A DNA stretch of 64,000 bases from an uncultured bacterium (GTDB lineage Bacteria; Chloroflexota; UBA5177; JANWHV01), in the NCBI GenBank assembly GCA_963827235.1, contig CAWHAE010000014.1:384001-448000 (forward strand), given 5' to 3'. Positions 57,166-60,100 of this stretch are shown piece after piece. The translations under genes were made by a program, and so were the position numbers. The notes under the pieces were generated by a model. It did not search any database. It was given only the letters and a program-made list of their open reading frames with translations, and had not been told where the DNA came from. Position 1 is the first letter of the stretch, and each line of letters begins with the position of its first letter.

Positions 57166-60100
57166 CTATTCTGCGTCCAGGTCGGCAGGCTCGGCATCGA
57201 GATCGTCCAGATCGTCGGGCATGTCGCCGAAGATATCCGGAGCCGATGAGTCGAGTCCGTCGTCGAAGGCTCCGAGCCCGTCTCCGCCACGCTCGAGCAT
57301 AGCAACACCGCCGCCCTGGAACAACTGCTCCTCGGCCTCCTCCGCGGCCATGGCGGCTCGGCGGCTGACCAGGCCGGAACCTGCCGGAATCAGCTTACCG
57401 ATGATCACGTTCTCCTTCAGGCCGAGCAGGCGATCCTTCTTGCCCGATATCGCGGCCTCCGTGAGCACGCGGGTGGTCTCCTGAAACGATGCCGCGGCCA
57501 GGAAGCTGTCCGTGTTCAGACTCGCCTTGGTCACGCCCAGGAGCACCGCCTTCGAAACGGCCGGCTGGCCATCTTGGGCAAGCACGCGGGCATTGATATC
57601 CTCGAAGACGAAGCGATCAACGAGCTCCCCTGGTAGCAGCTCCGTGTCGCCCGCATCCTCGATCTTGACCTTCCGCAACATCTGGCGCACGATCACTTCC
57701 ACGTGCTTGTCGTTGATGCCCACGCCCTGCGAGCGGTAAACACGCTGCACCTCGGCGACGAGGTACTTCTGAACCGCCTCTGGGCCCTGAATCTCCAGCA
57801 AGTCCTGGGGACCAACCGACCCTTCGGTGAGCTGCGTGCCCGCGAGCACCTTCTTGCCGTTCTCCACGCGGAGCCGAGCCACCTTGCCGACCTGGTATAG
57901 CCGGGTGTCGACGTCCTCGTAGTAGACGGTAATCTTGCCGTCCTCGATCGCGGCCCTACCCTTGTGACGCGAGACGATCTGGTCGGAGGTGTCCTCGGCC
58001 ACCACTGGCGATGCCGTGACCGCCGGCTCGGCCTCGCTCAGCGGCCGTGCGAGCACCTGGTTGACGTCGACATCCGAGTCCGCTACCACCAGAAGCTCGA
58101 ATCCCGGCGGCACGCTGTAGACGTCGCGGCAATCGCGCTTCGACGTCACGCGTACGTGCTGATCGTCCTCGTCTTTGACGATCTCCACCACGCCGTCGAT
58201 CTCCGAAATCACCGCCTTGTCCTTGGGCTCTCGGGCCTCGAAGAGCTCCTCGACGCGCGGCAGCCCCTGCGTGATGTCCTCGCCCGCGATGCCGCCGGTG
58301 TGGAAGGTCCGCATCGTGAGCTGCGTGCCCGGCTCGCCGATCGATTCGGCGGCGATGATGCCGACCGCCTCTCCCTCGGTCACCAGGTTGCGCGTCGCCA
58401 TGCTCCATCCGTAGCAATGCCGACACACCCCGCGCTTGGCCATGCAATTCAGCACGGAGCGAACGTAGAGCCCGCGCTGATTCTCATGGTCGTTTGAGCG
58501 GAGCGAGTCGATGATCAGCCCGGATAGGGCTCTGGTGATCTCCGCGATCTTGGGCTCGTGCGCTTGCAGCTCGGCCACGATCGGATGCGTGCGAAGCCCA
58601 TCAACGACCTTGGCCGCAAGCGTCTTGGTGAGCTGATAGTCTGGGCCCTCTTCGTCGCGCAAGGCATCGACGATCGGGTTACCGCGCAGAGCGGCCACCA
58701 CGGGATGAGCCCGCAGACTCTCCACGAAGCCGTCCACCAGCCTGTCGCTGATGTCGTGCGTCCTGTCGCCAAGCGCACGCAAGGCTTCGACGAATGTGTT
58801 GGCAATCAGCTCGGAGATCTGGCGAATCCTGTCGCCGTGCGCCCGCACCAGATCTGCATGGGCACCGGTCGGCTTCGCGGCGTGCGTCGGCTTGGACTTA
58901 AGCCCCGTGACGATCGCCTCGGCCAGCGTGTCGCCGATCTTCTGCATCTTCTCGCGGTGCGCGCGCAATGCTTCAACGAACGTATTGGCGAGTACCTCGG
59001 TAATCTCCTGGTTCTCGCCAATCACGACCTCGCCGGTCTGGGGATGCACGACCTTGCGTGTCGTCCACCGACCCGTAATGCGCCGCTCGAGCTTCTCGCC
59101 GGGATCGGCCTCCGACACCCACATGCCGCGATTGGTCCCGCAGTCCTCTACGTAGACGATGACGTCCTGACCGACGTCGATCAGGCGGCGCGTGAGGTAG
59201 CCGGACTCAGCAGTGCGCAGAGCAGTGTCCGCGAGGCCCTTTCGCGCACCGTGGGTGGAGATGAAGTAGTCGAGCACCGAGAGCCCTTCACGGAAGTTCG
59301 ACTTGATGGGCAGGTCGATGATCTGGCCCTGCGGATCGGCCATCAACCCGCGCATGCCGGCGAGCTGCGAAATCTGCGTGAACTGGCCCTTGGCGGCGCC
59401 TGATGTCGCCATCATGTAGATGGAGCCGAACTTGTCCAATCCCTCGGTCACGGCCTTGCTGACGCGGTCGCGGGCTTGTGTCCACGCTTCGATACGCTGG
59501 GCGTACTGCTCGTCCTTCGTAATCAGCCCCCGATCGTATTGGCGATCGAGCTTCTCCACTTCTGCCTGGACCTCGGCAATGATGGCGTATTTCTTCTCGG
59601 GAATCGTCACGTCGTCGATCGCGATCGTGGTGCCCGATCGCGTGGCGTACTGGAAGCCGATGCGCTTGATGTCGTCGGCCACCAGCGAAGTCTTGGCAGG
59701 ACCAAGCTCGCGGTACACCTCTCCGACCACGTCGCGCAGCTTGCCCTTGTCCTGCACGTGGTTCTTGTAGACGATCTGGCGCGGCAGCACCTCGTTGAAC
59801 AGGACGCGTCCCACCGTCGTCTTCAGGCCAAGCGTGCGGCTGCCCGGAATAGGGTTGATGTCCGACACGGGAATGCGGCCGACTTCGGTGGCAATGTAGC
59901 CCTCGCTCGCCGTGTCCACCGTGCGCTGCGGCATGACGATATAGATCGGCGCCTGCAAGGCGATCCGTCCTGAATCGTACGCCCTTGTGGCCTCCCAGAA
60001 GTCGCCGAAGACCATGCCCTCGCCCCTGGACTGGGGAATCTCGACCGTCAGATAGTAGCAGCCGAGCACCATGTCCTTCGTCGGCGAGACCATCGGATCT

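Follow-up and report, generated by a model that had tools for sequence, protein, structure and literature searches.

How does a lineage-specific insertion in RNA polymerase (RNAP) begin? Such insertions are usually ancient, phylum-wide and drawn from few recurring β-rich folds, so that their beginnings are not observable. The question is raised here by the rpoC gene of an uncultured Chloroflexota bacterium, in a 64,000-nucleotide stretch of DNA (assembly GCA_963827235.1, contig CAWHAE010000014.1, positions 384,001 to 448,000; hereafter the window, from genome G000). In this stretch an initial annotation, made from the sequence alone, had placed an insertion of modular helical repeats, about 160 amino acids (aa) long, inside the second Zn-binding (Zn2) domain of the encoded subunit β′. 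The reading that we moderately favor is that of a genuine, evolutionarily young and lineage-restricted β′ insertion of about 155 aa, kept as a selected structural or docking appendage.

Insertion between the first two ligands of an intact Zn site

The repeat stretch and the Zn2 ligands around it were located as follows; P0001 is the main open reading frame (ORF) of the window β′.

59140..59142, minus strand: first Zn2 ligand, Cys633 of P0001, in EDCGT (by codon count; column invariant in 28 aligned sequences)
58468..59007, minus strand: helical-repeat stretch of 180 aa, consisting of the native helix in the first and last copies plus a net 155-aa insertion
58444..58446, minus strand: second Zn2 ligand, Cys865, in RSVLNC (by codon count; column invariant in the 28 aligned sequences)
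58414..58425, minus strand: third and fourth Zn2 ligands, Cys872 and Cys875, in CRHC (from the translation, with coordinates by codon arithmetic; columns invariant)

All four Zn2 ligands and the flanking core were unchanged in the window β′. Cys633 and Cys865 are 232 codons apart, and both this spacing and the cysteine coordinates had been given exactly by the initial annotation. The corresponding spacing is 236 codons in the congener G001 and 71 to 83 in 25 of 27 related β′ loci. In E. coli β′, Cys814 and Cys888 are 74 residues apart, which fits the range seen in the relatives as well as the alignment of a predicted model to E. coli β′ residues 802-928. Compared with insert-free congeners, the net extra length is 155 aa in the window (232 versus 77) and 159 aa in G001. 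The proposed insertion between ligands 1 and 2 of the Zn2 site is thus real, with a net length of 155 aa rather than the 160 or so first proposed. The insert was absent from 25 of the 27 aligned loci, namely those of G002-G004, from the same genus, and 22 others from the class and phylum. An ungapped alignment to ordinary relatives, which the initial annotation had named as an outcome that would speak against an insertion, was not seen, a clean gap being present at these 25 loci.

An array built from copies of the host helix

The internal elements of the 180-aa stretch are listed below in the order of translation; invariance refers to the three orthologues known to carry the insert, those of G000 and G001 and the 816-aa metagenome fragment P0003.

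58960..59007, minus strand: helix copy 1, 16 aa, keeping the native N-terminal half (12/16 residues invariant in 3 orthologues)
58894..58941, minus strand: helix copy 2, 16 aa (7/16 invariant in 3 orthologues)
58840..58893, minus strand: hypervariable pair of 9-aa modules, site of a 4-aa indel relative to G001 and P0003 (1/18 invariant)
58774..58821, minus strand: helix copy 3, 16 aa (12/16 aa and 36/48 nt identical to copy 1)
58636..58773, minus strand: best-conserved insert core, with linker LGDRTH, helix copy 4, modules HPVVAALRG and NPIVDALRD, and linker EEGPDY (linkers 5/6 and 6/6 invariant, helix copy 4 12/16 invariant, in 3 orthologues)
58588..58635, minus strand: helix copy 5, 16 aa (9/16 invariant in 3 orthologues)
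58495..58542, minus strand: helix copy 6, 16 aa, keeping the native C-terminal half and running into a conserved 17-aa stretch

The repeat grammar that had been claimed for this stretch was borne out, with six 16-aa helices, 9-aa sub-modules and 6-aa linkers. The helices start at offsets 0, 22, 62, 84, 124 and 155 and are thus spaced by 22, 40, 22, 40 and 31 residues. The best ungapped self-diagonal, at offset 62, scored 109 compared to 26.6±4.2 (maximum, 48) in shuffled sequences, and 0 of 500 shuffles reached 109. Further strong self-diagonals were observed at offsets 40, 31, 22 and 9, with 102 and 84 also listed; the repeat offsets were described as 22+9k (22, 31, 40, 62) and 9, and the 9-aa modules as half-copies of the 16-aa helix. 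The motif φ-[VIA]-x-x-[LV]-[RKHQ]-x occurred 9 times versus 0.04 times expected in shuffles, a count that is descriptive only, the motif having been defined post hoc.

At this position the congeners without the insert have one helix only: G002 reads EITEVLSGPVADALRT and then ...QQRGLYVRS, and G003 reads EVTEALSGAVVDALRS. In the window, the first copy retains the native EITEVL, and the last copy retains ALSG..D.LRS plus ..NQRGLYVRS. The N- and C-terminal halves of that helix thus reappear in the first and the last copy, respectively, which places the array inside the native helix. Amplification of the native helix, as suggested by the initial annotation, was indeed what we found: the insert is built from copies of the helix 'EITxxLxxxφ(V/A)DALR', which is single in the congeners. 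It thus consists of diverged copies of the host helix, comprising six 16-aa copies and 9-aa half-copies, joined with conserved 6-aa linkers.

Two identical 10-aa copies (58989-58960 and 58803-58774) differ at exactly five synonymous sites (AAT/AAC, ACG/ACA, GTT/GTC, GCA/GCC and CGC/CGT) and at zero nonsynonymous sites, precisely as had been counted before. No DNA-level repeat was reported by Tandem Repeats Finder, and a DNA repeat search returned only families of 21-37 nt at 70-83% identity. Since the DNA copies are diverged and gave no Tandem Repeats Finder match, the duplications are old. The array probably arose by in-place tandem duplication of native-helix DNA in units of 66 nt (22 aa) and 27 nt (9 aa), followed by a later duplication of a 186-nt (62-aa) super-unit; no foreign domain would have been acquired.

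Known lineage-specific RNAP inserts are for the most part copied from mobile fold types, SBHM/HABAS and BEAN among them (PMC11515920), and on that precedent a foreign domain, an intein or a mobile element could have been inserted into rpoC. Against such an origin, no homologue was found outside the carriers' rpoC genes in the searches made, and Pfam assigned no family to the insert, intein and endonuclease families included, with four unrelated sub-threshold matches only (best expectation value [E], 0.043). Moreover, its composition equals that of the host gene (GC, 63.1% versus 63.5% in the rest of the ORF; GC at third codon positions, 79% versus 85%), and its copies resemble the host's own helix. 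An intein in particular was rejected, as no Hint/endonuclease Pfam match was present and the segment, a helix repeat, extends the helix of the host. We thus consider a foreign origin very improbable and regard the segment, with high confidence, as a real insert that was born in place and is lineage specific.

Distribution within a single genus

Among 41 related genomes searched, full-length β′ coverage was found only in G001. In G002-G004 and in all other related genomes, the match breaks at residues ~693 and ~833-858. A search with the insert alone matched 2 of the 21 species genomes of the class; these genome tallies, and that of the 401-genome search described below, include genomes flagged as unpublished (G018; G343, G226, G175, G271 and G055). 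Among 5.8 billion protein clusters, the insert matched only the window's own protein and P0003, and among 1.84 billion protein representatives it matched only P0003. The window's own genome held no second copy of the insert (next best E, 0.32), and peptide-word scans of genome contigs and metagenome contigs gave no relative, on few exact or near-exact words and with the own genome possibly left out.

The same six-helix architecture was present in G000, G001 and P0003, with one 4-aa indel. Insert identity to the window was 67% in G001 and 64-66% over the insert region in P0003, and the flanks were near-identical. In a quick IQ-TREE phylogeny (LG+G4; 20 rows, consisting of 19 of the 30 loci plus P0003; insert columns excluded), the three carriers formed a clade with a Shimodaira-Hasegawa-like approximate likelihood ratio test (SH-aLRT) value of 100, inside a genus clade that also received 100. 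The simplest history is a single gain after the split from G002. The initial annotation had allowed that the insert might prove widespread; its carriers were instead confined to a three-member sub-clade of one genus. Lineage-specific RNAP insertions in the sense of Lane and Darst are segments of >40 aa between conserved segments that are absent from other bacterial RNAPs (see PMC2939025), and the present 155 aa fit this description, being absent from the 25 related loci and also from 76 distinct solved β′ sequences, with a distribution that follows one clade.

An assembly or binning artefact, for instance a repeat that was collapsed or expanded, or a contig chimera in a metagenome-assembled genome (MAG), would be compatible with the 9.06% estimated contamination of the genome, with the single-base frame disruptions nearby in rpoC and rpoB and with the fact that no reads of the organism itself were found. 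A run search gave three soil-metagenome runs, each with 0.04 of the sampled words, and listed no RNA sequencing run holding window words. Contigs of the soil runs at 80% likeness covered the conserved flanks only, with few bins in the insert (depth, 0.2-20), and the joints in these runs that skip 747-782 bases stem from other organisms' rpoC. However, two independent sequences, G001 and P0003, share the array at 64-67% insert identity between near-identical flanks, in agreement with the initial annotation, which had argued against an artefact. The copies, at 42-75% nucleotide identity, are too diverged for assembler mis-collapse, and the reading frame is open throughout the insert. An artefact is thus hardly credible.

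Position in the enzyme and predicted fold

The insert interrupts α6, the final α-helix of the β′-bD5 BEAN domain, which belongs to the β′ shelf; in sequence it falls between Zn2 ligands Cys633 and Cys865. BEAN domains consist of two α-β-β brackets, and β′-bD5 is such a domain (α1β2β3/β4β5α6), spanning residues 807-888 in a proteobacterial β′ (PMC11515920). The shelf comprises E. coli β′ residues 787-931/1135-1150/1216-1317; it comes after the bridge helix, touches Si3 and flanks the channel for downstream DNA (PMC6970531). The 76 solved β′ sequences matched our query (window:58339-59241) only at positions 1-~90 and 257/258-301, and in the three alignments shown only ~4-6 chain residues lay between the two matching stretches. 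Its position and the tolerance of the site suggest that the insert is solvent exposed.

An AlphaFold model of the insert in context (mean predicted local distance difference test [pLDDT] score, 60.7) aligned to E. coli β′ residues 802-928 with Z values of 13-14 over 118-123 residues. A structure search with this model recovered β′ chains only and nothing on the insert's own fold. In both AlphaFold models, in context and alone, which are of low confidence, DSSP assigned only helices and no strand across the insert. This agrees with the initial annotation, which had not recognized it as an SBHM-type insert. The insert differs from SBHM/HABAS inserts in that no strand was predicted at this low confidence, in its 100° period and in the lack of a Pfam match. 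Nor does it correspond to an inserted BEAN domain, being predicted to be all-helical; the host domain itself is BEAN, and the insert repeats only its last helix.

The helices are amphipathic: each has a hydrophobic moment of 0.46-0.60, with a peak at 100° in the hydrophobicity spectrum. The initial annotation had likened them to apolipoprotein/LEA-type helices, and an amphipathic module of this kind might tether RNAP to a membrane or lipid; besides the hydrophobic moments, one of the spacings, at 22 aa, would suit such a module. Apolipoprotein and LEA repeats have an 11-mer or 22-mer tandem periodicity. In contrast, the self-diagonals of the insert fall at 22+9k and 9, with none at 11 or 33 and a weak one at 44 (score, 24). 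Even at E ≤ 10, Pfam gave only CelTOS, DUF7674, DUF922 and Obc1_cap, all far below cut-offs. Mean helix hydrophobicity is near zero (~0 to 0.2), the isoelectric point is 6.15 and the net charge is -4, and the helices share their amphipathic pattern with the native helix, an element of a small globular domain. The analogy and the idea of membrane binding were thus abandoned, and we consider a lipid tether highly unlikely.

Alternatively, the insert might be a nucleic-acid arm extending from the shelf to the downstream DNA, with effects on open-complex stability or pausing. Indeed, the shelf lines the downstream duplex channel, and E. coli inserts on that side, Si3 and βlobe-Si1, affect initiation and pausing (PMC6970531). 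However, the insert is slightly acidic (23 K+R versus 27 D+E), and the present models, of low confidence, fix no orientation relative to the DNA; such an arm seems improbable.

Other inserts at the same site

We surveyed 401 Chloroflexota genomes by a search with the insert-free G002 domain. Matches were obtained in 382 genomes, and 10 of the genomes with split matches among the rows listed were followed up, so that the counts are lower bounds. At least two unrelated inserts were found at the same helix.

G195:C33:41000-41800: locus L047, insert of ~45 aa in G195 (Cys-Cys spacing, 123)
G280:C93:5850-6650: locus L048, insert of ~50 aa in G280 (Cys-Cys spacing, 129)

These two inserts share the insertion point and the enlarged Cys-Cys spacing of the window insert but differ from it in being 45-50 aa long, not visibly repetitive and without similarity to it (best E, 0.56); Pfam gave no family for either of them. 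Since the window insert and the unrelated G195 and G280 inserts share the site, the α6 helix of β′-bD5 marks a permissive hot spot. Among the other split matches, those of G143 and G157 were due to contig breaks and that of G013 to a frame break.

Two further observations were made in this survey. G160, a congener of G280, matched once and at full strength (E, 1.3e-52) and probably is without the G280 insert; if so, either an insert would again vary within a genus or a contig was mis-binned. In 5 of the 10 followed-up genomes, only additions of ~15-20 aa were seen, located past the first Zn ligand in the domain's first half (loci L037-L046 in G373, G220, G276, G140 and G308; also L018 and L023; genera g131, g93 and g202 plus two further genomes).

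The 'second half of β′-bD5' is listed as site (iv) among seven lineage-specific insertion locations, and HABAS, BEAN or sLC domains are inserted in rare deep-branching variants (Alvarez-Carreño et al. 2024, PMC11515920). The site had thus been described already, whereas the same insert was not found described: a literature search whose coverage was without the Lane and Darst 2010 catalogue and the per-species Table S4 of PMC11515920 returned no description of it. The window insert shares with site (iv) the host domain and the approximate position, between Zn2 ligands in the BEAN C-terminal helix, and leaves the base domain intact. However, the rare variants reported in that study are HABAS, BEAN or sLC domains in deep lineages (Firmicutes, DST group; PMC11515920), and the window insert is all-α as predicted, made from the host helix and confined to part of one Chloroflexota genus.

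Two other inserts offer parallels in fold or growth. The actinobacterial β′i1 resembles the window insert as a purely α-helical β′ insert, of ~90 aa in two long antiparallel helices; it projects from the enzyme, and an unrelated insert of another phylum occupies the same insertion point. It differs in lying in the clamp (~residue 140), in being phylum-wide (720 homologues) and not internally repetitive, and in its conserved charge asymmetry (Hubin et al. 2017, PMC5511352). Si3 (β′i6) of E. coli and cyanobacteria has likewise been enlarged through duplication of one of its own modules, and it touches shelf and jaw (PMC6970531, PMC11515920), but it is a β-rich SBHM/HABAS element in the trigger loop, ancient and widespread, whereas the window insert is helical, located in β′-bD5 and young. 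Helical lineage-specific inserts (β′i1) and growth by internal duplication (Si3) were thus already known; what is new here is the use of the host domain's own helix as the building block, the fold class at this site, and the youth of an insert that is variable within one genus.

Selection on the insert and its possible role

In the comparison of G000 with G001, the proportions of nonsynonymous (pN) and synonymous (pS) differences were 0.195 and 0.673 in the insert (171 codons) and 0.050 and 0.631 in the rest of rpoC (1147 codons). The corresponding dN/dS ratios were 0.13 and 0.037, with 0.08 in a 60-codon window of the best-conserved insert core; these ratios are rough, dS being near saturation (1.4-1.7). 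Amino acid identity between the two genomes was 65% in the insert and 93% in the rest of the gene. The insert is thus under purifying selection that is weaker than that on the core. Moreover, 20 of the 24 residues of the linkers HREKxQ, HxDxIR, LxDRTH and EEGPDY were invariant across the three orthologues. The notion of an old, selected duplication, put forward by the initial annotation, holds in that the architecture is kept in the three orthologues and dN/dS is 0.13.

As modeled, the insert would fold as an all-α excursion with both ends meeting at the Zn site. It may project from the shelf surface and leave the catalytic core undisturbed, and it would be retained as a selected structural or protein-docking appendage, like other lineage-specific RNAP inserts, and not as a membrane- or DNA-binding arm. 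Such a selected appendage is, in our judgment, slightly favored by the evidence.

A tolerated passenger is possible but clearly less probable. Here, replication slippage would have expanded a surface helix at a permissive site, without a function of its own and with selection acting only against unfolded, aggregating or core-disturbing variants. Consistent with this, the site tolerates unrelated inserts in other lineages, three congeners are without the insert, an 18-aa stretch is nearly unconstrained and carries the indel, the dN/dS of the insert is 3.6× that of the rest of the gene, and no confident fold was predicted. However, the six-helix architecture has been kept, with no copy lost, across three lineages whose synonymous sites are saturated, a dN/dS of 0.13 is well below neutrality, and the conservation of the polar linkers is not required by solubility alone.

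Several points weigh against a genuine insertion retained as a selected appendage. Only three orthologues are known, the near-saturated dS makes the selection estimates imprecise, and one 18-aa segment is almost free to vary (1/18 invariant). Positions on the hydrophobic face were not significantly more invariant than the others (20/30 versus 36/66; Fisher p, 0.37). Model confidence is low in the insert (pLDDT, 47-68 in context; mean of 43.8 alone), which leaves the tertiary fold and a 'surface arm' tentative. The DNA copies are too diverged, at 42-75% identity, for the exact order of duplications to be reconstructed. Finally, no source-organism reads across the array were found, and outside the array, rpoC and rpoB of the window assembly carry single-base indels.

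Gene context and state of rpoC in the assembly

On the minus strand of the window, rpoB is followed by rpoC and then by ORFs of the size of ribosomal proteins and elongation factors.

57166..62103, minus strand: rpoC (RNA polymerase β′), Chloroflexota type, with the frame interrupted near 61359, 61169 and 61040

One β′ is encoded jointly by an N-terminal ORF (61213-62103, starting with MLEVNDF), a middle ORF (61008-61475) and the main ORF (57166-61038; 1290 aa). The latter carries Rpb1 domains 1-5 in order (PF04997, PF00623, PF04983, PF05000 and PF04998; Pfam, E of 3e-12 to 1e-64), and the catalytic motif NADFDGDQ is present in the translation. The main and N-terminal ORFs align end to end with the intact 1651-aa β′ of G001, whose open frame counts 1659 aa, and tblastn with the latter as the query spans window positions 62103-57169. 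Compared with G001, the window rpoC has three 1-base insertions, at ~61359, ~61169 and ~61040, all upstream of the insert; the three frame shifts fall within ~320 nt and amount to a net change of +3. Since G000 gave only one rpoC match, these breaks are most likely assembly indels. Three Chloroflexota MAG records (L034-L036) match the window β′ at 86-88% identity.

The 3′ end of rpoB has one extra base relative to G001 at ~62293, and its frame therefore overruns the G001 stop by ~60 codons, to 62081, which leaves 22 nt to the start of rpoC. Near 63552-63760, rpoB is again divided between frames. All of the rpoB and rpoC indels fall in 61040-63760, with none in the 3.9 kb downstream.

Elsewhere in β′, residues ~130-350 (window ~61050-61720) form a long, charged, coiled-coil-like insertion in the N-terminal third, which is common to relatives (open frames of 1420-1540 aa) and lies in the same region as the frame breaks. 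The Chloroflexi 'type 2' insertion has been put in β′-bD2, at this place (PMC11515920). At the C terminus (57166-57360), a tail of ~60 aa is Gly-rich and then strongly acidic, and it is conserved in P0003.

Implications for the evolution of RNA polymerase

The source material, one helix as in three congeners, and the outcome, an array of six copies, coexist within one genus. They amount to a dated and polarised case in which a domain was probably born through in-place amplification, within a protein that is among the most conserved known. The insert is also a clade marker for these uncultured Chloroflexota, and the rpoC of the window assembly, broken by indels, calls for caution in automated annotation. 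Insertions have been inferred to have ceased in later bacterial evolution (PMC11515920), and the window insert tempers this published inference that the insertional diversification of RNAP stopped early. As a tentative suggestion, the helical-repeat module may be a new domain seen soon after its birth, serving under selection as a platform on the shelf face at which a regulator or a nucleoid component specific to the clade docks. If this were true, RNAP would still be gaining functional insertions at the genus level, contrary to the inference drawn in PMC11515920.

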